Positions 23 to 53,972 of a stretch of 64,000 bases of DNA are shown here, piece by piece; the first letter of the stretch is position 1; each line of letters opens with the position of its first letter. A model generated the notes under the pieces. The model worked only from the letters and a program-made list of their open reading frames with translations, did no database searches and had not been told where the DNA came from. The DNA comes from Candidatus Doudnabacteria bacterium (GTDB lineage Bacteria; Patescibacteriota; Doudnabacteria; UBA920): contig CAWINB010000004.1 in NCBI GenBank assembly GCA_963837465.1, positions 650,853 through 714,852 of the forward strand, written 5' to 3'. The position numbers and the translations under genes were made by a program.

Positions 23-1126
23 TTGAGGACTAATTTGGAAGAGGTTGAGTATGTTAGTAAATCAAGGAGTTCTAATTTACTTAATAAGCAAGAAAGAGCA
101 TTTTTATTGCATTTTTTAATGTTACGAGACTTGCTTTTTAATTTGATACAAAAGTATAATTCTCTTCCCGAAACAAATGACGAAAAACAAGCGTTTAAAG
201 ATTTTAATTTATATAATTGGCTACCGGGCCTGGGGGATTCAGAGTATGATAACGAGATTAAATTATCAAGTCCAATAAAAAGTAGAGACACAATTGCTGG
301 TATTGGCGTCGCTCCGATTTCAGGGGCAAATAATTATATTAGTGCTCAAAAGTCTACATTGTCGAATGGAATTTCACAGCCGCCACAAAACACTTCGCCG
401 TCTAGAATATCGGACCCTGCCATATCTTCTGTCACTCCAAAATCAATCCTCTCAAATACCCGCAGTGTTCTGGAAAGCGATAATCAAGACATAGTTAATC
501 TTGGGCCGGGGTTGAGGATGGGTGGTGGCGCGACACAAGTTCCAAGTTCCAAGTTGAAAGTTGAAAGTGGGGAACAGGCTGGTAAAGAGGGACAAATGCC
601 AAATGCCAAATTACCAATTTCAAATGCGGGTTTGCGCGGTGGCAGTGATTTGGGCAACCAATCCAACTACGCCAAGGCTTCGTCGGACAAAATGAAACCC
701 AGCCAAAGGCTGGGTGGTTTGGCAGACTCCAAACTGGAGTTTGAGCCAGGCTTGCTATCCAACAATAGTGTATCAGAAAATAATAAAACCGCCCAGTTAA
801 GGGCGGTTCCAGGGTCTCTACCGGATAATTTAAGACCTGGGTTGACGCTTAACAAAAGCATATCAGAAGCAAAAAATTTGTCAAGTTACCGTTCTTCAGG
901 TGGTGGACCCGGGGGGAGTCGAACCCCCGAAACCTTGGCGTCAACCCAGGCTTCATTCCCGGTACGGGCCCACTCGGATGAATTATACCATAAACAAGGC
1001 AATAATCAAAAATATCCTCAAATTAATGAGGTTTTATTGCCGCCACCTTCAAAGTTGCGGATAAAACAAGCGGATATTGACAGGAAGCTTGAGGAGCTCG
1101 ATAAGAGATTAAGTAAAAATAAGTAA
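23..1126 (+). CDS. hypothetical low-complexity (Ser/Gly/Pro/Asn-rich) protein
   Basis: 367-aa ORF with strong compositional bias and no recognisable catalytic motif. It may be regulated or translated together with the next ORF (28-bp gap). Confidence 0.4.
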   Translation: MRTNLEEVEYVSKSRSSNLLNKQERAFLLHFLMLRDLLFNLIQKYNSLPETNDEKQAFKDFNLYNWLPGLGDSEYDNEIKLSSPIKSRDTIAGIGVAPISGANNYISAQKSTLSNGISQPPQNTSPSRISDPAISSVTPKSILSNTRSVLESDNQDIVNLGPGLRMGGGATQVPSSKLKVESGEQAGKEGQMPNAKLPISNAGLRGGSDLGNQSNYAKASSDKMKPSQRLGGLADSKLEFEPGLLSNNSVSENNKTAQLRAVPGSLPDNLRPGLTLNKSISEAKNLSSYRSSGGGPGGSRTPETLASTQASFPVRAHSDELYHKQGNNQKYPQINEVLLPPPSKLRIKQADIDRKLEELDKRLSKNK

Positions 1127-2330: not shown

Positions 2331-2334
2331 AGAT

Positions 2335-2365
2335 AATATCAAATTACAAATTTCAAATGACAAAT
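2335..2365. repeat. left arm of inverted repeat flanking the 4HB gene (CAAATTACAAATTTCAAAT motif)
   Basis: Reverse-complementary to 2731-2755 (ATTTGATATTTGTAATTTGAAATT). The same motif family recurs at 11382-11488. Confidence 0.6.
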
Positions 2366-2725
2366 GAAAAAAAATTTGACCTTGAAGAGCGGACTGCAAA
2401 ATTCGGGGAATCAACAATTGAGTTTGCGGGATTTATTCCACAAGGGCCTATTACCAACCCCTTAATTAACCAATATGTTAAATCCGGCACCTCAATCGGG
2501 GCAAATTATTGTGAAGCTGATTCAGCAGAATCAAGAAAAGACTTTGAGCACAAAATCGGTATTTGTAAAAAAGAGTCCAAAGAAACCCGCTACTGGTTGC
2601 GTATGATACCAAAAGCCAGACCTGAATTAGACCAAAAGGCCGCGATTCTTTGGAAAGAAGCTAATGAGCTATTATTGATATTTTCCGCGATTATCAAAAA
2701 GTCACGTATTAACGGATCAAAGTAA
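2357..2725 (+). CDS. four helix bundle protein (TIGR02436 / 23S rRNA intervening-sequence protein family)
   Basis: 122 aa with motifs IGANYCEA...SRKDFxHKIGICKKESKETRYWL typical of the family. Flanked by inverted repeats. Confidence 0.7.
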   Translation: MTNEKKFDLEERTAKFGESTIEFAGFIPQGPITNPLINQYVKSGTSIGANYCEADSAESRKDFEHKIGICKKESKETRYWLRMIPKARPELDQKAAILWKEANELLLIFSAIIKKSRINGSK

Positions 2726-2730
2726 TTTAG

Positions 2731-2755
2731 AATTTGATATTTGTAATTTGAAATT
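2731..2755. repeat. right arm of inverted repeat flanking the 4HB gene
   Basis: See left arm (2335-2365). Confidence 0.6.
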
Positions 2756-2781
2756 ATTAATTATGTTATAATTAAGTCGAT

Positions 2782-3237
2782 ATGCAATTTCCCGTGCCAC
2801 AATTTACGGATGTTGAGGATAAAATCATCGGCTCGCTTACGATTAAGCAGTTTGGGATTTTGTTTGGCGTCGGCATTGTCATTTTTTTGGGCTACTCTGT
2901 TTCCAAAAGCATTTTGGTGGCGATATTTTTGTTTTTGTTGTTCGGCGTGCCGGGTCTGGGCGTGGCCTTTGCCAAAATTAACGGCCGGCCCATATACAGC
3001 AGCATAGGCAATTTTATTAAGTTTTTTACCAGTCCCAAAGTCCTGATTTTTCACAAGGAAACTGTAAGTTCGTCGGCATCGACTGCCGCTTTTAAAGACG
3101 CCCAAATGGCCGCGGCCGAAGTAAAAGTCCAGGCTCCTGTTCCGGCCGAAAACACCCAAACGCATCTTAAACAAGTGGAGGAGCTCCTGAGAAAAACATC
3201 AAACCAGGAACAGGAAATGGCTAATAAAATCCGTTAG
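2782..3237 (+). CDS. PrgI-family protein (T4SS/conjugation-associated small membrane protein)
   Basis: N-terminus MQFPVPQFTDVEDKIIGSLTIKQF followed by two TM helices. Matches the PrgI family as found next to VirB4 in Gram-positive and CPR T4SS loci. Confidence 0.6.
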   Translation: MQFPVPQFTDVEDKIIGSLTIKQFGILFGVGIVIFLGYSVSKSILVAIFLFLLFGVPGLGVAFAKINGRPIYSSIGNFIKFFTSPKVLIFHKETVSSSASTAAFKDAQMAAAEVKVQAPVPAENTQTHLKQVEELLRKTSNQEQEMANKIR

Positions 3238-3270
3238 AATCAGGAGTTAGGAATTATGAGTTAGGGTCCT

Positions 3271-3317
3271 CCCTAACCCCTAACCCCTAACCCCTAACCC
3301 CTAACCCCTAACCCCCT
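3271..3317. repeat. tandem heptamer repeat (CCCCTAA)x~6.5, telomere-like, preceded by hairpin GTTAGGG-TCCT-CCCTAAC
   Basis: Direct reading of the sequence. Lies in the 83-bp gap between prgI-like and virB4-like genes. Confidence 0.95.
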
Positions 3318-4004: not shown

Positions 4005-4487
4005 TTATCAGGATACTGATATACCGATATGAATACGAATGATACCAATAATACGGATTCTAACAACCAACGCGGTGAATTAATTCATGGGGATTTAACA
4101 TATAAAATTAACAGTGTATTATTTTCTACCCACAATGAACTTGGTCCTTACGTCAGGGAAAGCAATATGAAGATGTGGCAAAAAGAATATTTAAAGAAAA
4201 AGGCATTGGTTATGAACAACAGGTTTCTATCGGCGATTCAGGTAATATAGTAGACGGCATTATTGATAAAAAGGTTCTTATTGAATACAAGGCCAAAAGG
4301 ATATTAACTAAAGAAGATTATTATCAAACCCAAAGATACCTTCAGGAAACCGGTTTAAAACTCGCTATTTTAGTCAATTTTAGAGATAAATATATTAAAC
4401 CCAAACGGATTATAAAAATAGATAACTGGAAATATTAGAATCAGTATTATTGGTATCATCTGTATCTTATCCGTATATTAGCATCAT
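4005..4487. mobile_element. 483-bp insertion in virB4 carrying the GxxExxY gene, bounded by inverted words GATACCAATAATAC (about 4050) and GTATTATTGGTATC (about 4450)
   Basis: virB4 N- and C-terminal parts are contiguous in homologues. The inverted repeats were read directly. Related repeat words also occur at 52840-52958. Confidence 0.5.
4029..4438 (+). pseudogene. GxxExxY-family protein (PD-(D/E)XK-like) gene, frameshifted, inside the insertion that splits virB4
   Basis: ORF 4029-4250 (LTYKINSVLFSTHNELGPY) and ORF 4175-4438 (YEDVAKRIF...IEYKAKRILTKEDYYQTQRYLQETGLKLAILVNF) together reconstruct the family consensus. The frames differ near 4160-4175. Confidence 0.6.
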
Positions 4488-6359
4488 ATGTCCATATTCA
4501 GTAAAATCAACGAAGAAGAATTAAAGAAAAAGAAGGAGCAGGTCAGCGAGGCCGAGACCGAGCGGAACTTGAGTTCTTCTTTGGGGGATCTGGAAAAAAC
4601 CTATCGCGAAGGCTTGACTACCCTAAAGGATATTATCGCGCCTTCGGCCCTGAAGTTTGAAAGTTCCCACTTTGAAATTAACGGCAAGTTCGGCCGCAGT
4701 TTTTTCGTGCTGGCTTATCCGCGCTTTTTGTCCAGCAATTGGCTGTCGTTTATTATCCAGGCCGAGGGAGCTTTGGATTTGTCCATGTTTATTTATCCCA
4801 TTGATTCCGCCGACATCCTGAAAAAACTCAAGAGCAAAGTCGGTGAAATCGGCTCGCAAATGTCCATTAACCAGGAAAAAGGCATGGTGCGCGACCCGAT
4901 GCTGGAAACCGCTTACAAAGATGTGGAAAGTTTGCGCGACAACCTCATGCAGGGAACGGAAAAATATTTCCGTTTCGCGCTTTACTTTACCATTTACGCC
5001 AACGACTTAAAGGAGCTGGACAAGTTTTCCTCCACTTTGGAAAGTTCTTTGGGAGCCAAACTTATAGTAACCAAGCGCGCGCTTTTGCAAACGCAAAACG
5101 GCCTTAACTCCAGTCTGCCTTTGGGGCTGGATGAACTGGACGTGGCCAACAATATGAACACCGGCCCGCTGTCTTCCTGCTTTCCTTTCGTGTCTTCCGA
5201 TTTAACCAGCAATGACGGAATTTTATACGGCATCAACCGCCACAATAACAGCCTGATTTTGTTCGATCGCTTTGCCATGGAAAACGCCAATTCCGTGGTG
5301 TTTGCCAAGTCCGGGGCCGGTAAATCTTACGCCGTCAAACTGGAAGTTTTGCGCTCGCTTATGGTGGGTACGGACGTTATTATAGTGGACCCGGAAAACG
5401 AGTACCAGCATTTGGCTTCGGCCGTGGGCGGGACTTATTTGAGCGTGTCGCTGAATTCGGAATTCGCGCATCAACCCTTTTGATTTGCCCACGGGCCTTG
5501 AGGGCGAGGACAGCGCCGATATTTTACGCAGTTCCGTCATCAATCTTTTGGGCTTGCTTAGTCTGATGCTGGGAAAACTTGACCCTACGGAAGAAGCGCT
5601 TATGGACAAGGCCATTTGGCAAACCTATGCCAAAAAAGACATTACGCCGCAACTGGAAGATTTTAAAGGCATAGAGCCTCCGACCATGAACGATTTGATA
5701 GAAATTTTAAACGGCATGGTCGGCGCCGAAAGCCTGGCCCAGCGCTTGTTTAAGTTTACCCAGGGTACTTTTGGCGGCTTGTTAAACCAGCCGACCAACG
5801 TGGTGCTGAACAATCAACTTGTAGTATTTAGCATTCGCGATCTGGAAGAGGAACTGCGGCCGATTGCCATGTACATTATTTTAAATTATATTTGGAATAT
5901 TGTGCGTTCGGAATTAAAGCGCCGAATCCTGGCCGTGGACGAGGCCTGGATTTTAATGCAGCACGAAGATTCGGCCAGGTTTTTGTTCGGCATTGCCAAG
6001 CGCGCGCGCAAATATTACCTGGGCCTGACCACCATTACCCAGGACGTGGCCGATTTTCTGGCCAGCCCGTACGGCAAGCCTATTGTCACCAACTCATCCA
6101 TCCAAATGCTGCTTAAGCAGAGTCCGGCGGCCATTAACGTTATCGCGGAAACGTTTTTTTTAACCGAGGGCGAAAAATACCTGCTGCTGGAAAGCGAAGT
6201 CGGCGAAGGCATCTTTTTTGCCGGCCTCAAGCACGCCGCGATTAAAATTTACGCCTCCTACGTGGAAGACCAGATTATCACCACGGATCCCAAACAGTTG
6301 CTGGAGATTCAGGAGAGCCAGGAGAAGTTGAATTAAATTCATGGATATGACAGATGCCA

Positions 6360-11347: not shown

Positions 11348-11381
11348 GTCTGGATTTTATATATTCAGGCAGCTCCAGGTT

Positions 11382-11488
11382 AATTTCAAATTTCCAATTA
11401 CAAATTTCAAATTAATGCCGAGTACCCAATTTTGAATTTGATTGTTGGGGTTTGGTTTGAAATTTGATATTTGCAATTTGGAATTTTT
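11382..11488. repeat. solo copy of the CAAATTTCAAAT inverted-repeat element (no internal gene)
   Basis: Arms AATTTCAAATTTCCAATTACAAATTTCAAATT and TTTGAAATTTGATATTTGCAATTTGGAATT are inverted. Same family as the flanks of the 4HB gene at 2357. Confidence 0.6.
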
Positions 11489-11495
11489 TATTTTT

Positions 11496-15552: not shown

Positions 15553-15564
15553 TTAATATTCCAC

Positions 15565-15670
15565 AGATCACGGATAAGCACAGATTCACAGATTGATTAT
15601 CCGCTTAGTAGTATTGTTGGAAGAATTTAAATTATCAGATAAATAATCTGCGTATCTGTGTCAATCTGTG
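15565..15670. repeat. about 40-bp imperfect inverted repeat (CCACAGATCAC...CACAGATTCACAGATTGA / TCTGTGTCAATCTGTGATCTGTGG)
   Basis: Direct reading. Lies between tRNA-Arg and the downstream membrane-protein gene. Confidence 0.7.
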
Positions 15671-15681
15671 ATCTGTGGACA

Positions 15682-16152
15682 TTAAAATTTAAACCTATGC
15701 GTAATCTTTTGTGCCGGGGTTTCCTGGGTTTCGTGGTGTTCGGGCAGCCGGCGCGCAAGGTAATCCCGGATAGTATCCGGGTTTTGGTCTTCAAGTTCCA
15801 AAATCAGGGTATTGTTAACCAAGGCTGATGTGTGGAAATTTATGGTTTGGTGTCTTTCGTTGTGCACCACCCAGAAATATTTTAACTGTTTGTAGGGGTA
15901 AAATAAATTGCCGAATTTTATGCCACGGTCGTTAAGCTCTATGGTTACCACCCGCGGAATTTGCCGGGAGAACACAATAATTAAAAGGCAGATAATTCCC
16001 AGTGTGACGGAGGCGAAAAGATCGCTTTCCACTATGGCAAAAAAGGCAATCAGCAAAATAAAAACACAAATCAGCGTAACGTACCACCCTATGTTTTTGG
16101 GATAATGCTTAAACTCCGGAGCTTGCCAGGAAATATTGGCTGGGTTAGACAT
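15682..16152 (-). CDS. hypothetical small membrane protein
   Basis: 156 aa with two TM helices near the N-terminus. Confidence 0.4.
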   Translation of the reverse strand: MSNPANISWQAPEFKHYPKNIGWYVTLICVFILLIAFFAIVESDLFASVTLGIICLLIIVFSRQIPRVVTIELNDRGIKFGNLFYPYKQLKYFWVVHNERHQTINFHTSALVNNTLILELEDQNPDTIRDYLARRLPEHHETQETPAQKITHRFKF

Positions 16153-16356
16153 ATTGGCTTGAATTGATTAAAATGTATTGAGAAACCGTATAAAAAGTCC
16201 ATTCCGGCTGAAATCCCGTAATTTCGGCCGTTGTCATAAAAATTTTATCGGCTTGGCTTTAGGCTGAACCTTAAAAATTATTTATGCCAACCGCCACGAA
16301 ATTCTGAAATTTCATCACTAAAGCAACTTTCTGTACCGTTTCCAAGTATTTATCAC

Positions 16357-25886: not shown

Positions 25887-25923
25887 GGGGGTAGGGTATA
25901 GGGGCTAGGGGGTTAGGGGTTAG
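25887..25923. repeat. G-rich flank GGGGGTAGGGTATAGGGGCTAGGGGGTTAGGGGTTAG (GGGGTTA units)
   Basis: Inverted complement of the C-rich flank 26308-26343 on the other side of the 4HB gene. Has at least 4 G-tracts. Confidence 0.85.
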
Positions 25924-25931
25924 AAAAGCAC

Positions 25932-26303
25932 CTAATTGATTGTAGTTGAGCGAAGTTTTTTGATTAGCGCTAGTAGCATTTTTTGTACTTGCAGAAGTAA
26001 TGACTTAGCGATCAAATAATCAAAATTCGGATACAATTTTTCCATCAGTAATATTTGTGTTTCAAGTTCTGCCGTCGATCCAAAAGCTATGCCCAAAAAT
26101 TGAATGAATTCTTTGGTATGGTTCCTCGCGTGGCCTTCTGCTATGTTGGAAGGTATAGAGATGGCAGCTCTTTGTGTTTGTGAACAAAGGCCGTAAAGTT
26201 CGTGTTTAGGAAATTGGCGGGTAATTTTATATATTTCTAATACTAAATCATTAGATTTTTGCCAAACAATTAAGTCTTTGTAGCTTAAGATCTGGTTTTG
26301 CAT
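25932..26303 (-). CDS. four helix bundle protein (TIGR02436 / 23S rRNA IVS protein family), second copy
   Basis: Motifs DLIVWQKS...FPKHELYGLCSQTQRAAISIPSNIAEGHAR...GSTAELETQ, canonical for the family. Confidence 0.8.
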   Translation of the reverse strand: MQNQILSYKDLIVWQKSNDLVLEIYKITRQFPKHELYGLCSQTQRAAISIPSNIAEGHARNHTKEFIQFLGIAFGSTAELETQILLMEKLYPNFDYLIAKSLLLQVQKMLLALIKKLRSTTIN

Positions 26304-26307
26304 ACTA

Positions 26308-26343
26308 TTCCCTAATCTCTATTCCCTAGCCCCTACCATTAGA
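26308..26343. repeat. C-rich flank ATTCCCTAATCTCTATTCCCTAGCCCCTACCATTAG
   Basis: Shares the core AGGGGCTAGGG/CCCTAGCCCCT in inverted orientation with 25887-25923. Confidence 0.8.
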
Positions 26344-30196: not shown

Positions 30197-32626
30197 ATGC
30201 CGGATTTTTTGGATAATTTAAAAGATAGTGTTGATAGCTATATTGACAATCGCGCTTTGGCGGATTTGCAGTATCGGGTGAAGTTGATTTTAAAGGAGCG
30301 CGAGGAGTTAAGGGACTGGAGCGACAAGGAGCTGCGTCTGGCGGCTTTGGCTTTTAAGGACGATTTGGCCAAAGGCAAGCGGCTGGATACTTTGGTGGTG
30401 CAGGCTTTTGCCGTGGTTAACGAAGCCGCCCGCCGCGTGACCAGGCAAACGCCTTTTCCGGCGCAAATTTTGGCGGGACTGGTCATCAACAGCGGCATTG
30501 TGGCGGAAATGAAGGCCGGCGAGGGTAAGACTTTAACCGAAACTATGCCGGTTTACACTAACGCGCTGCTTGGCCACGGCGTGCATCTGGTTACCACCAA
30601 CGATTACCTGGCCGAGCGCGACGCCGCGCAAAACGGCAAGCTGTTTAATTTTTTGGGCCTGTCCGTGGGCTTTGTGACCTCGACTATGAAGAGCGACGAG
30701 CGCAAAAAATCCTACGCCGCGGACATCACTTACGTCACCAACCAGGAGGTCGGGTTTGATTACCTGCGCGACAACCTGGTATTTTCCAAAAACCAAAGAG
30801 TTTTAAGGGCCGAGCATCCGCTTTATTTTGGCATTGTGGATGAAATTGACAGCATCTTAATAGACGAGTCGCGCACGCCGCTTATTATAGCCGAGCCGGT
30901 TAAGGAAGAGCGGAATTTTTACGATTTGTTCACCCAAATTGCTGAACAGTTAAAAGAAGACGAAGACTATACTGTTGATTACCAAAAAAAACAAATCAGC
31001 ATGACCGACGAAGGCCTTAACAAAGTGGAAAAATTTTTGGGCAGTCCGGTGTTTTCCAAAGACAATCCCATGTACGTGTTTTACCTGGATGTTTGTTTAA
31101 AGGCCAGGGTAATTTTTGAAAAAAACCGCGACTATATTTTAAGCGACGAGGGCGTGGAAATCGTGGATGAATTTACCGGCCGCGTTTTGCCCGGCCGCAG
31201 GTTCACCGACGGCGTGCACCAGGCCATCGAGGCCAAGGAAAAGGTTAAGGTTAAACAGGCGGACAGGATCCAGGCCAGCATCACCTTCCAGAATTTTTTT
31301 CCCATGTACGAAAAACTTTCCGGCATGAGCGGCACCGTTATGCGCGCCCGCGACGAGTTTAAAAAAGTCTACAAACTGGAAGTGGTTCAGATCCCAACCA
31401 ACCGGCCTATCATTCGCGTTGACCACAACGACTTGTTTTTTAAAACCCAAAAAGGCAAGTTTATGGGACTGATGAAAAAAGTCAGCCACCTTAACCAAAA
31501 AGGCCAGCCGGTATTAATCGGCACCCGCAACGTGGAGACCGCGCATTTGGTGGCTGAGCTTTTGGACCAGGCCCGCTATCCCTATCAGATGCTTACGGCC
31601 AGCGACCACCGCGCCGAGGCGGAAAAAATCCAGAAAGCCGGCCAAGACGGCATGATAACCGTGGCCACCAATATGGCCGGGCGCGGCACCGACATTTTGC
31701 TCGGCCCGGGAGTGGAAAATTCCGGCGGCTTGTTTGTGCTGGGTACGGAACGCCACGAATCGCGCCGCATAGACGACCAGCTGGTGGGACGCAGCGGCAG
31801 ACAGGGCGAACCCGGAGAATCGCAATTTTTAATTTCCATGGAAGACGAAATTATGCAGCTGTTCGGCAGCGAAGCGATTATTGACGCCATGGAAGCTTAC
31901 GATATCCCGGAGGACGAATATGTTTCCGGCAACAACCTGACCAAAGCTTTTAAAAAAGCCCAGGATTTTGTGGAAAGCAAAAATCTGGACAGCCGGCTCT
32001 ATCTTTACAAATACGACAGCGTCACCAATTACCAGAGGCGCTATGTTTACGGCCAGCGCGACAGCCTGCTGGAAAACGAAGCCAATTTTTTGGATTTTTT
32101 AACAACTTCCGTCCGCCGCCGCCTGAGGCAAATTTTGGAATTAAAAGATCCGCGGTTAATCGCCGGGGAAATGCTGGCCGTGTTCAGGGTGGAGGCGGCG
32201 CCCGAAGAAATTGCCGCTTCTTTGGGGCTGGAGCCGGATGCCGCCAAAACAACCCGCGCCATAAATGAGTGGCTCAATCCTTTTTACAAAAACCCGAACC
32301 CCCCAAACAATACCTTTAACGCGGCTCAGGAAAAACTGGCTTCGTATTTGGAAAAGTTGGCCTTAAAGATAAAGCGGGAGCCCGAGGTTTACCAGGCCGC
32401 CGGCAGTTTAATTCTGCAAATTATAGACAACCAGTGGAGCCAGCAGCTGGAGCTGATGGAAGCGCTTAAGGAACAGGCGGGACTGTTTTCCTACGTTTCC
32501 CAGGATCCGCTCATAGATTTCGTGCTGGAAGGCCAGAAACTGTTTGACCATAGCCAAAACGAAATGGCGCGCCAGTTTTTATCTGCCATATTTTTGCACT
32601 TGGAGCAAAAGGGGATGATAGAGTAG
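30197..32626 (+). CDS. secA: preprotein translocase ATPase SecA
   Basis: MKAGEGKTLTETMPVYTNALLG...LVTTNDYLAERD and DEAD-like motifs. 809 aa. Confidence 0.9.
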   Translation: MPDFLDNLKDSVDSYIDNRALADLQYRVKLILKEREELRDWSDKELRLAALAFKDDLAKGKRLDTLVVQAFAVVNEAARRVTRQTPFPAQILAGLVINSGIVAEMKAGEGKTLTETMPVYTNALLGHGVHLVTTNDYLAERDAAQNGKLFNFLGLSVGFVTSTMKSDERKKSYAADITYVTNQEVGFDYLRDNLVFSKNQRVLRAEHPLYFGIVDEIDSILIDESRTPLIIAEPVKEERNFYDLFTQIAEQLKEDEDYTVDYQKKQISMTDEGLNKVEKFLGSPVFSKDNPMYVFYLDVCLKARVIFEKNRDYILSDEGVEIVDEFTGRVLPGRRFTDGVHQAIEAKEKVKVKQADRIQASITFQNFFPMYEKLSGMSGTVMRARDEFKKVYKLEVVQIPTNRPIIRVDHNDLFFKTQKGKFMGLMKKVSHLNQKGQPVLIGTRNVETAHLVAELLDQARYPYQMLTASDHRAEAEKIQKAGQDGMITVATNMAGRGTDILLGPGVENSGGLFVLGTERHESRRIDDQLVGRSGRQGEPGESQFLISMEDEIMQLFGSEAIIDAMEAYDIPEDEYVSGNNLTKAFKKAQDFVESKNLDSRLYLYKYDSVTNYQRRYVYGQRDSLLENEANFLDFLTTSVRRRLRQILELKDPRLIAGEMLAVFRVEAAPEEIAASLGLEPDAAKTTRAINEWLNPFYKNPNPPNNTFNAAQEKLASYLEKLALKIKREPEVYQAAGSLILQIIDNQWSQQLELMEALKEQAGLFSYVSQDPLIDFVLEGQKLFDHSQNEMARQFLSAIFLHLEQKGMIE

Positions 32627-32880
32627 AACCTGTTTTAAAAATACTCCGGGCCGCGATTTAAGAATTTTGGCCAAAATCCCAAAAAAATTGTTCCGTTTAA
32701 CTTAGGTTAAACACCAAAATTTATATTGAAATTTTGTCACAAAATTCTTAAATTCCGCCCGCGAATTATTTTTCAAACAGGTTTTAGTGATAAAAATGAA
32801 CAAAAATTAAAAAAATGACAAAAATTAAACGCCCCACGCGGCGCATTGCCAAGTAGGCTTATTTTTAATATAATTGCTCC

Positions 32881-34786: not shown

Positions 34787-35089
34787 AGAATTAAGTGTGC
34801 CGCGCCGATTCATCGGCTTAATTATTAAAGGTTATAAAATGACAAGCGCAATTGTGTTTATAATTTTGTTAGAAGATGTTTAAAAAGTGCTTTGTAGGCG
34901 AAATTACAGAATTTTGCGCGGATTGACGGAAACAAATTTTGACGTTTAGCCTAAAGCTAAGCGGAAAAATTTTTTTCGGCAAGGCGCCAAACATTCTGGA
35001 ATCGCGGCCCAAATGACTTTTTAAACAGCTTCTTAGATGTTTTGGCTTTAATTACAATAATTTATTATTTTTTACAAAGAAGGTAACTA

Positions 35090-52134: not shown

Positions 52135-52302
52135 AACTTATCTTAAAAATACTTAGGGCCGCAATTCCGTAATTTTGGCGGCTTGCCTGGAAAAACATTT
52201 TTGCTTAATTCAGGTTAAACATCAAAGTTTGTTTGGAGCTAATCCGTCCAAAATTCCGAAATTCCACCTACAAATTATTTTTAAGGCCGGTTCTCATTAA
52301 AA

Positions 52303-53789: not shown

Positions 53790-53856
53790 TTTTTGAAAGG
53801 CATGGTTGGTCACGGATTCGTCCTGTGATCCCGATCGCGCTAAAAAGCCATAAATT

Positions 53857-53937
53857 GTCACCATTCCGAGGAGCGCGTCCGACGAGGAATCCCTTATCCC
53901 TATGTTTAAGGGATTCCTCGGATGCGCTAGGGATGGT
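53857..53937. repeat. copy A of the dispersed palindromic element (CCATTCCGAGGAGCGCGTCCGACGAGGAATCCCT ... AGGGATTCCTCGGATGCGCTAGGGATGG)
   Basis: Self-complementary arms. Same family as copies B, C and D. Confidence 0.7.
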
Positions 53938-53972
53938 ACAATGAGGGCAGCGGTCTACCATCGTAAAAACAT

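Follow-up and report, generated by a model that had tools for sequence, protein, structure and literature searches.

Why a gene of the 23S ribosomal RNA (rRNA) intervening sequence (IVS) family should lie between inverted repeats, in a spacer between protein genes, is the question raised by the unit at positions 2333-2757 of a 64,000-nucleotide (nt) stretch of Candidatus Doudnabacteria DNA (contig CAWINB010000004.1, positions 650,853 to 714,852; the whole stretch is here called the window). The available evidence favours, with a probability of roughly 0.72, the view that this unit (cassette 1) is an IVS-type selfish stem-loop cassette bearing an open reading frame (ORF) and lodged in an mRNA spacer between protein genes. 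Such cassettes are units of arms plus gene that have been horizontally mobile over evolutionary time; they are concentrated in a few spacers of conserved operons, where they turn over and decay to gene-less hairpins (solos).

The assignment of the gene at 2357-2725 to the rRNA-IVS family, made in an earlier reading of the sequence alone, is borne out by profile searches, in which its product matches PF05635 (23S_rRNA_IVP) with 42.8 bits (cut-off 33.8; E 6.8e-11) and TIGR02436 (four helix bundle protein) with 62.3 bits (cut-off 24; E 4.4e-17). The closest solved relative is PDB 2RLD (E 3.7e-12), deposited with five chains, and a solved member is also available for the classical four-helix-bundle (4HB) subfamily (PDB 2GSC, which is XCC0516); from likeness to these solved members, the product is predicted to have a four-helix-bundle fold and may form a pentamer. 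The inverted arms that the sequence-only reading placed at 2335-2365 and 2731-2755 fall within those recovered here by inverted-repeat search (2333-2365 and 2725-2757), which are 33 nt long, 85% complementary and 359 nt apart, giving 425 nt overall. Both arms are period-7 arrays of 3.6-4.6 copies by Tandem Repeats Finder, with the core CAAATTN.

IVSs in rRNA genes have been an unexplained curiosity since 1990. The ORF-bearing forms in 23S rRNA (Coxiella burnetii, Leptospira, Brucella, Haemophilus) measure ~0.4-0.8 kb in total and have a PF05635 ORF of the same family in the loop; that of Coxiella, at 428-444 nt similar in size to cassette 1, has a 28-bp terminal stem (~28-33 bp in both) closing the loop with its 4HB (S23p) ORF, and is cleaved by RNase III. 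Heptamers in variable number stand just 5' of the ATG in both, as three tandem GACAGAT units plus one degenerate unit in Coxiella, where copy number varies by strain, and as four CAAATTN units in cassette 1. The earlier description of the unit as a small cargo-carrying palindromic element is thus supported but understated, in that its architecture (size, stem, loop ORF, heptamers before the ATG) is that of a classical ORF-bearing 23S rRNA IVS outside rRNA. The differences are of setting and condition: rRNA IVSs occupy an rRNA helix whereas cassette 1 occupies a protein-gene spacer, its kind being found within operons or at their margins; excision by RNase III has been shown for rRNA IVSs and would apply to cassette 1 by analogy; and the Coxiella ORF was judged to be decaying, whereas the Doudnabacteria 4HB cargo appears to be under purifying selection. 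The Coxiella paper describes the IVS as a selfish element, leaves its origin unexplained, and notes that rRNA IVSs took the place of tetraloops in pre-existing helices. ORF-less rRNA IVSs (Salmonella, Yersinia, Campylobacter), which are defined by their rRNA position, provide a gene-less stem-loop beside the ORF-bearing form, as does the solo considered next. In rRNA genes of the candidate phyla radiation (CPR), most insertions that are not introns either measure <200 bp or have a 23S_rRNA_IVP or GIY-YIG ORF, the GIY-YIG insertions being placed outside a homing context by the authors of that study. There is no rRNA in the window; an Rfam scan at gathering thresholds gave three tRNAs as its only matches, none of the hairpins corresponding to a known RNA family.

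The arms of cassette 1 also occur in the window without a gene. The gene-less pair reported earlier at 11382-11488 was recovered at 11382-11486, between a PD40-repeat gene and a RadA-like gene, with no ORF between its arms. The left arms of cassette 1 and of this solo both read CAAATTTCAAAT, and the right arms, as reverse complements, both read CAAATATCAAAT; because the same arm imperfection is present in both, the two arm pairs are copies by descent, not chance AT-rich palindromes. Their similarity score is 36, against a between-genome median of 11. The core arms of the solo (11388-11413 and 11461-11486) are 26 nt long and 85% complementary, and can be extended to 51 nt at 71%. RNA folding, one of the checks that had been proposed, makes the arms the closing stem of both units, at -98.5 kcal/mol for cassette 1 and -29.2 kcal/mol for the solo (z -2.9 each; for the solo, 0 of 200 shuffles were as good). 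The arm word CAAATTACAAATTTCAAAT, allowing up to 3 mismatches, has nine matches in the window where 0.21 are expected, a number reached in none of 100 shuffles, and all nine lie in the arms of cassette 1, in the arms of this solo, or at 607-625. Common descent of the arm pair with that of cassette 1 is all that is shown for the solo at 11382-11486; an origin by deletion is shown elsewhere, as described below.

That cassettes come and go is apparent from related genomes, ~100 other genomes having been compared in all. Cassette 1 lies between a gene for a 391-aa protein without known family and PrgI, which is followed by the VirB4 N-part gene and the VirB4 ATPase gene, the surrounding genes forming a type IV secretion-like operon. 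A scan of species-representative genomes with the VirB4 ATPase part gave 80 syntenic loci, mostly from Candidatus Doudnabacteria (individual loci are given L numbers), onto which 11 window proteins were mapped. Spacer lengths at four operon junctions form three groups, <60, ~70-260 and ~430-570 nt. Most of the 430-570-nt spacers have 20-55-nt inverted arms at both ends (z ~4 to 39 against shuffles), and their ORFs belong to PF05635 (several subfamilies), to PF13366 (PDDEXK_3, GxxExxY type) or, once, to PF01541 (GIY-YIG); many of the 70-260-nt spacers are hairpins with tandem-repeat arms.

The comparison of empty and filled sites that the sequence-only reading had called for proved informative at the cassette 1 site itself, where, across 38 related genomes, the same spacer is empty, holds a solo, or carries one of at least three different 4HB cassettes. 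Thirteen genomes have only 14-54 nt between the 391-aa gene and PrgI, and one (L002) has a solo. Orthologous 4HB genes, 68-74% identical, are present in L010, L025 and L073, with CAAATTN arms differing in unit number, and other 4HB subfamilies with other heptamers (ATCCTTN, ATTTAGC) are present in L008 and L009. The spacer between the VirB4 N-part and ATPase genes likewise holds 4HB or GxxExxY cassettes in different genomes, in some cases with scars of earlier arms of the other cassette type (L007, L026, L030, L005), and solos also lie within the operon at this junction in L022, L025, L027 and L073. In insert-free genomes the stop and ATG at this junction are 1-40 nt apart, some overlapping; the arms of the cassettes there mostly start at, or within ~10 nt of, the upstream stop codon, and in 12 of 16 their end lies 0-9 nt short of the downstream ATG. 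Cargo ORFs throughout these loci are co-oriented with their neighbours, and the ORFs extend into the arms at both ends. Because orthologous spacers are empty, solo or differently filled, cassettes have been acquired, exchanged for others and lost over the time in which species diverged.

The association of arms with particular gene families was measured by an inverted-repeat score from flank to flank (threshold ≥30), applied to all ORFs in the 80 loci and the window; 16 of 20 4HB genes score at or above it, against 1.7% of 860 control ORFs. The repeat period differs by cargo, being 7 as the dominant period in 17 of 20 4HB cassettes (median ~3.5-4 heptamers per arm) and mostly 8-11 in intact GxxExxY cassettes, the arms of which have the form (N3-5 CGGAT)n. 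Because period and core follow the cargo family in this way (7 nt for 4HB, N3-5 CGGAT for GxxExxY), the tandem arrays are likely to be recognition sites of the cargo proteins. Nonsynonymous divergence (dN) among cargo genes is 0.09-0.34, and 0.15-0.26 between the window 4HB gene and its orthologues in L010, L025 and L073. Synonymous divergence (dS) is saturated in most cargo pairs, among them every pair of orthologues of the window 4HB gene; estimates were possible in one 4HB subfamily and two GxxExxY groups, and dN/dS there is 0.07-0.14, a range that points to purifying selection on the cargo genes. A PADLOC scan of the cargo proteins gave no match for 4HB or GIY-YIG, and only a marginal Cas4 match (E 0.0074) for GxxExxY.

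Internal deletion of cargo is one way in which a gene-less hairpin can form, as one relative's solo demonstrates. In L001, the 202-nt solo between the VirB4 N-part and ATPase genes aligns with the L010 GxxExxY cassette over both arms and over the 3' end of its ORF (..IKPKRI..), an alignment that identifies it as an internal-deletion derivative of a cassette. Arms at different junctions are also more often alike within a genome than between genomes, with scores ≥24 in 8 of 38 within-genome pairs and 44 of 1057 between-genome pairs (Fisher p 2.4e-4), and the top within-genome pairs each join a cargo form and a solo (L074, L013, L073, L036 and the window); the overall difference in similarity is marginal (Mann-Whitney p 0.056), the signal being in the high-score tail. 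Cargo exchange is suggested at the junction of PrgI and the VirB4 N-part gene, where L001 and L073 have common outer arms (82% and 97% identity) around unrelated interiors, i.e. in L001 a GIY-YIG gene accompanied by an inner inverted repeat of its own, and in L073 a GxxExxY gene; cargo is therefore replaceable, or nestable, in an existing arm pair.

Outside the lineage the evidence comes from about 15 hand-checked loci rather than a census. On Cloacimonadota-like and Eisenbacteria contigs, 4HB genes 66-74% identical to that of the window have AT-rich heptamer arms with the same ...tttcaaatgacaaATG end, and these cassettes fill the spacer between two co-directional genes. The XCC0516-type 4HB gene of Xanthomonas lies between accB and accC, with GGGAATC-type heptamers on the left and complementary CCCATTC on the right. 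Among eight 4HB genes on plasmids, inverted heptamer arrays enclose five, and two have an array on one side only; bracketing heptamers include TAGGGAG (Nostoc edaphicum), GGGTGTR (N. punctiforme), AGGTGAC (Anabaena sp. 90), AAGGGAA (Geminocystis) and GGTTYAA (Riemerella). In all, 4HB genes with a 7-nt period were seen in six phyla. For GxxExxY genes, a CGGAT core is also found beside them in Treponema and Gemmatirosa, and of three plasmid matches that were checked, one has a short bracket, one a hairpin beside it and one neither. To judge from these sequences, arms and gene travel together, including between phyla. The Anabaena sp. 90 case (L216, plasmid pANA02) is a 4HB cassette between cas6 and cas4, its arms being (AGGTGAC)n and (GTCACCT)n, and the reported '23S_rRNA_IVP genes in cas loci' (PMC3936711) may stem from the entry of selfish elements into operon spacers and not from a role in CRISPR; some caution is warranted, in that 4HB genes in cas or other loci need not imply functional association.

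How inserts of this size could be borne inside tight operons may be envisaged as follows. Paired arms, with a stem that extends from the stop codon upstream to a point shortly before the start codon or promoter downstream, would make insertion into such spacers tolerable, in that arm pairing would restore the stop-start geometry of the empty spacer, while the insert would be looped out of the transcript and possibly cut by RNase III, as in rRNA IVSs; restored geometry together with an RNase III substrate would explain the tolerance of inserts inside operons. The looping-out and RNase III step is drawn from analogy, because the mismatch counts fit a neutral DNA palindrome: in 73 arm pairs, G.U-type mismatches number 122 and A.C-type mismatches 115 (p 0.70). 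The excess of G.U over A.C predicted for stems selected in mRNA is hence unsupported, and the pattern is one of neutral decay of a strand-symmetric DNA palindrome, not of a selected RNA stem.

The lack of an RNA-strand signature is one of several observations that weigh against the preferred interpretation, i.e. a mobile, IVS-type cassette. Movement is inferred from presence and absence between species, not between strains. Nearly all the relatives are metagenome-assembled genomes; the same architecture is nevertheless shown by many assemblies made independently and by complete records of Xanthomonas, Nostoc and Riemerella. No target-site duplication was seen at the junctions of ~35 cassettes, which were inspected by eye without an automated search, no recombinase or transposase gene was found within the cassettes (the cargo being 4HB, PDDEXK_3 or GIY-YIG), and no ORF remnant is recognisable by eye in the solo at 11382-11486. 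Pairing is weak in the window's second 4HB cassette (19 nt, 79%; a 13-bp closing stem). One of the eight plasmid-borne 4HB genes is without arms, and two are antisense to both neighbours, which belong to a single operon (L212 in Nostoc edaphicum, between nrd subunits, and L214 in Calothrix, between toxin-secretion genes), unlike all Doudnabacteria cargo, which is co-oriented with its neighbours.

The arm word provides a further point on that side. In metagenomes CAAATTNCAAATTNCAAAT occurs on at least 120 contigs; among the 120 listed, two have a 4HB gene at the motif, ~27 have short-loop inverted pairs, nine have pairs with 250-700-nt loops (one with a 4HB gene) and ~85 have unpaired arrays. 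The word is thus common without a 4HB gene (118 of the 120 contigs listed), and many arrays are unpaired. The sequence-only reading had itself named as a potential refutation that the motif might be simply an abundant AT-rich word; this is half true globally but false within the window genome. The association runs from the 4HB gene to heptamer arms, not from the arm word to the gene; outside the window genome the word is not diagnostic.

Among alternatives, the one that survives best, although it is unlikely, is that the hairpins came first, native spacer hairpins (terminators, RNA-stability or regulator sites) acting as landing pads with small selfish genes inserting into their loops. The common outer arms of L001 and L073 around unrelated cargo, and the nested inner repeat of the L001 GIY-YIG gene, are as expected on this basis, and insertion into loops has a precedent in IS1397 and ISKpn1, which insert in the loops of repetitive extragenic palindromic (REP) sequences; the replacement of tetraloops of pre-existing helices by rRNA IVSs, noted in the Coxiella paper, is in line with it. 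So is the spacer between the PD40 and RadA-like genes (11348-11495 in the window), which in 56 loci never holds cargo and mostly has significant arms, in the form of a tandem-repeat hairpin with a sequence differing by genome; this may reflect either fast turnover of solos or a host need for some hairpin there. The solo in that spacer is trailed by a T-run, TTTTTTATTTTT, as a terminator would be, but its stem is long and AT-rich, unlike the short GC-rich stem of an intrinsic terminator. Against hairpins of host origin are the joint conservation of arms and ORF across phyla, to the same last ATG-containing heptamers, the tracking of cargo family by arm period and core, the entry of ORFs into the arms at both ends, the one solo that is clearly a cassette deletion product, and the presence of hairpins within the operon at the junction of the VirB4 N-part and ATPase genes, where stop and start in empty genomes overlap or are 1-20 nt apart and a terminator would be harmful.

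An improbable alternative is that the units resemble transposable elements of the miniature inverted-repeat type (MITEs) or other non-autonomous transposons, the arms being terminal inverted repeats (TIRs) for a transposase encoded elsewhere, the ORF a passenger and the solos internally deleted MITEs. Like MITEs and the REP sequences and their hairpin-forming doublets (REPINs), the cassettes are short intergenic palindromes, present in several copies per genome, with gene-less forms akin to one that bears a gene; they have terminal inverted repeats, the arms of solo and cargo forms are the same, a solo can arise by deletion, and the sites are intergenic and AT-rich. They differ in that no target duplication was seen by eye at any junction inspected, no cognate transposase or REP-associated tyrosine transposase (RAYT) was identified within the cassettes, and the cargo is of 4HB or nuclease-fold type. 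Moreover, the 64-kb window, from a genome with a main contig of ~0.87 Mb, holds at least four unrelated arm sequences (CAAATTN, CCCTAAC, ACGGAT-type and CTAATTA-type), each of which would require a separate transposase; the arms are made up of internal repeats in variable number, unlike the fixed-end TIRs bound by transposases; and the cargo, which falls into only three families, appears to be under strong purifying selection.

The seg and mob genes of phage T4, which are free-standing homing endonuclease genes, are alike in being small genes in the spacers of conserved genes with patchy presence, and two of the cargo families here are nuclease-fold; they differ in having no enclosing inverted arms, and 4HB is not a nuclease. 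Very improbable is a process of this 'intronless homing' type, in which a nuclease cargo cuts the empty allele and repair copies the cassette, 4HB genes being moved by a nuclease in trans or by flank recombination and the arms insulating expression, for although it accords with the polymorphic occupancy of the same few spacers between conserved genes (VirB4 parts 70-92% identical) by varied cargo, with the nuclease folds of PF13366 and PF01541, with the GIY-YIG and 23S_rRNA_IVP ORFs of CPR rRNA insertions, and with the lack of visible target duplication (as expected of repair-mediated copying), the commonest cargo, 4HB, has no nuclease motif or known catalytic activity, the CPR authors judged the GIY-YIG insertions to be outside homing, and neither the cargo-dependent period of the arrays nor the spread of solos to other spacers of the same genome is explained.

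A relationship of the 4HB cargo to the Avd proteins of diversity-generating retroelements, which have the same fold family, form pentamers and bind nucleic acid, also merits consideration. Neither a reverse transcriptase nor a template-variable repeat pair is present beside either window 4HB gene, the spacers being too tight for more genes. Classical 4HB cargoes give sub-threshold matches to PF22296 (bAvd), whereas the first 4HB protein of the window matches only PF05635; the homology of Avd and PF05635 has been noted (PMC10053308).

If the preferred interpretation of an IVS-type cassette is correct, heptamer arrays described in other bacteria may have a similar origin. Tandemly repeated heptanucleotides are on record for Calothrix PCC 7601 and are known as short tandemly repeated repetitive (STRR) sequences. 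Intergenic arrays of GGGAATC in Xanthomonas and GGGGA(C/T)T in Nostoc have been described (Rehm et al. 2015, PMC4692102); those of Xanthomonas form 70-75 convergent (inverted) pairs per genome, near the upstream ORF and species-variable in length, and were read as G-quadruplex formers (PMC4692102). Arrays of this kind have ~3-14 units. The genome paper on Geobacter metallireducens (PMC2700814) describes spacers, e.g. that between proB and proA, in which tandem repeats of 7, 8 and 8/9 nt form inverted pairs, guessed by its authors to be regulator sites; these include eight inverted pairs of five MTYCTGA units, with arms ~100 nt apart in the two pairs examined. The published Xanthomonas GGGAATC and Nostoc/Anabaena arrays were found here to flank 4HB genes, although in those genomes the majority of arrays enclose no gene, and a link of heptamer repeats to 4HB genes or IVSs is absent from the repeat papers in which it was sought.

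It is accordingly put forward as a tentative possibility, more doubtful than the interpretation of cassette 1 itself, that intergenic inverted heptamer arrays, on record in many bacteria for decades but never explained (cyanobacterial STRR, Xanthomonas GGGAATC, Geobacter pairs), are arms or relics of one widespread class of selfish IVS-type cassette, the complete form of which has a 4HB gene; pentameric 4HB protein might bind its own array of ~4-5 heptamers and so control stem formation, processing or copying, with GxxExxY and GIY-YIG cassettes as parallel classes having their own repeat codes. A ring protein that binds repeats has an analogue in TRAP, which binds triplet repeats. The element type, i.e. 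the ORF-bearing IVS, is already known. A search of openly searchable full text, a scope that leaves aside subscription papers and database family notes and so leaves room for an earlier description, found no account of IVS-type elements in mRNA spacers outside rRNA, of three interchangeable cargo families with family-specific repeat arms, or of a link of 4HB genes outside rRNA to heptamer arms or microsatellites. Were these facets of one cassette type, many 'hypothetical' genes and 'regulatory repeats' would gain a common, testable explanation; the 4HB, GxxExxY and small GIY-YIG families comprise many uncharacterised small proteins (two 4HB searches gave >5,000 relatives each), and the heptamer microsatellites of Xanthomonas, Nostoc and Geobacter have so far been explained ad hoc and separately. 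Culturable hosts would then be available for study, e.g. the Xanthomonas accB-4HB-accC arrangement (with XCC0516 solved) and Nostoc plasmids, and annotation pipelines could recognise cassettes and solos in operons (type IV secretion-like, acc, cas6|cas4, nrd), where they possibly affect expression.

The cassettes, solos and related arrays of the window are collected in Table 1.

Table 1. Cassettes, gene-less hairpins and heptamer arrays in the window (positions in nt from the first base of the window).
Feature	Position	Strand	Description
Unpaired direct array, cassette 1 heptamer family	593-625	+	CAAATGC CAAATGC CAAATTA CCAATTT CAAATGC; 1-mismatch match to the arm word at 607-625
Cassette 1 left arm	2333-2365	+	~4 tandem heptamers, CAAATTA CAAATTT CAAATGA CAAATG; includes the ORF start codon at 2357
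Cassette 1 cargo gene	2357-2725	+	122-aa 4HB protein, 23S-rRNA-IVS protein family
Cassette 1 right arm	2725-2757	+	Heptamer complement; first base is the last base of the stop codon
Solo hairpin	3233-3315	+	Between PrgI and VirB4 N-part gene; GTTAGGN / CCCTAAC heptamers
GxxExxY cassette	4012-4486	+	Spacer between VirB4 N-part and VirB4 ATPase genes; arms ~4012-4063 / 4435-4486; ORF 4029-4438, frameshifted
Solo hairpin with cassette 1 arm pair	11382-11486	+	Arms 11382-11413 / 11456-11486, ~42 nt between; T-run after
Solo hairpin, GxxExxY-arm style	15553-15685	+	CACAGAT CACGGAT ... / ... ATCTGTG; 59-nt arms, 73%, z 9.7
Second 4HB cassette	25887-26337	-	Between LemA and M48 peptidase, all minus strand; ORF 25932-26303
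Second 4HB cassette arms	26305-26337 and 25887-25923	-	Period-7 arrays, TAGGGGC TAGGGAA TAGAGAT TAGGGAA and CTAACCC CTAACCC CCTAGCC CCTATAC CCTACCC

The second 4HB gene, found with a local hidden Markov model, matches PF05635 with 118.3 bits (E 2.2e-34), and the arms of its cassette, TAGGGNN heptamers upstream of the gene and CCCTAAC-type heptamers downstream, abut the stop codon and ATG of the neighbouring genes. The product of the GxxExxY ORF matches TIGR04256 (E 3.5e-10; GxxExxY, PD-(D/E)XK fold). The arms of that cassette have the form (N3-5 [AC][CG][GA]AT)n, not heptamers, with a best block of 31 nt at 90% and z 25.8 for the 52-nt arms, and in the predicted RNA fold they give a long closing stem. 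That this cassette splits a VirB4 gene was considered and rejected, the N-part and the ATPase part being separate genes in all insert-free relatives. In the solo at 3233-3315 there are 6.4 copies of CCCTAAC (100% matches) and 25-nt arms (80%; z 6.1) with several pairing registers; its heptamer family is that of the second 4HB cassette arms. Given the solos at 11382-11486, 3233-3315 and 15553-15685, each of the three cassettes in the window is paired with a style-matched gene-less hairpin.

A scan for promoter and terminator consensus sequences near the cassettes reported nothing at the arms and was uninformative. A conserved TGnTATAAT is present ~7-12 nt before the PrgI ATG, 3' of the cassette right arm (2762-2781 in the window; also in L073, L010, L025, L008 and L009), and is probably the promoter for a nearly leaderless PrgI mRNA; if so, cassette 1 would lie between the end of a gene and a promoter. 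In L081, L084 and L087, a 45-60-nt direct repeat (AAAGGTTAAATATGATTTTnTTAAGTAATTTC...) flanks a 4HB cassette, ~130 nt to either side, and is either a long duplication from insertion or a host repeat that received the cassette.

The VirB4 ATPase gene is a single ORF in 10 of 10 relatives checked, and in the window it is split (4488-5483 and 5485-6336) by a frameshift shortly before 5461; the frameshift in the GxxExxY ORF lies near 4150-4180. Both may be either sequencing errors or real decay. A second direct, unpaired array (536-568, CAAGTTC/AAGTTGA) lies in the same doubtful low-complexity ORF as that at 593-625, and the two may be relic arms. On the minus strand at 901-971, a 71-nt match to both ends of the transfer-messenger RNA (tmRNA) model, covering the tRNA-like domain only (RF00023, 41.6 bits against a gathering threshold of 47; E 6.6e-15), was not called by ARAGORN and lies inside a low-complexity 367-aa ORF (23-1126) that is possibly not a genuine gene; the match could be a tmRNA fragment or what is left of an integration site, just upstream of the operon of secretion-like genes.

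Two further kinds of palindrome are present in the window. An unrelated palindromic intergenic element of ~145-170 nt (TTTAAAAATACTCCGGGCCGCGATTTAAGAATTTTGG...) occurs in four copies (16178-16345, 32624-32786, 34871-35033 and 52142-52285), and looks like a separate MITE-like family. A gene-less hairpin at 53854-53942, of GTCACCATTCCGAGGAGCG... type, resembles both the inner inverted repeat of the L001 GIY-YIG cassette and the solo between the PD40 and RadA-like genes in L074, and hairpins of this type may be the solo form of GIY-YIG cassettes.

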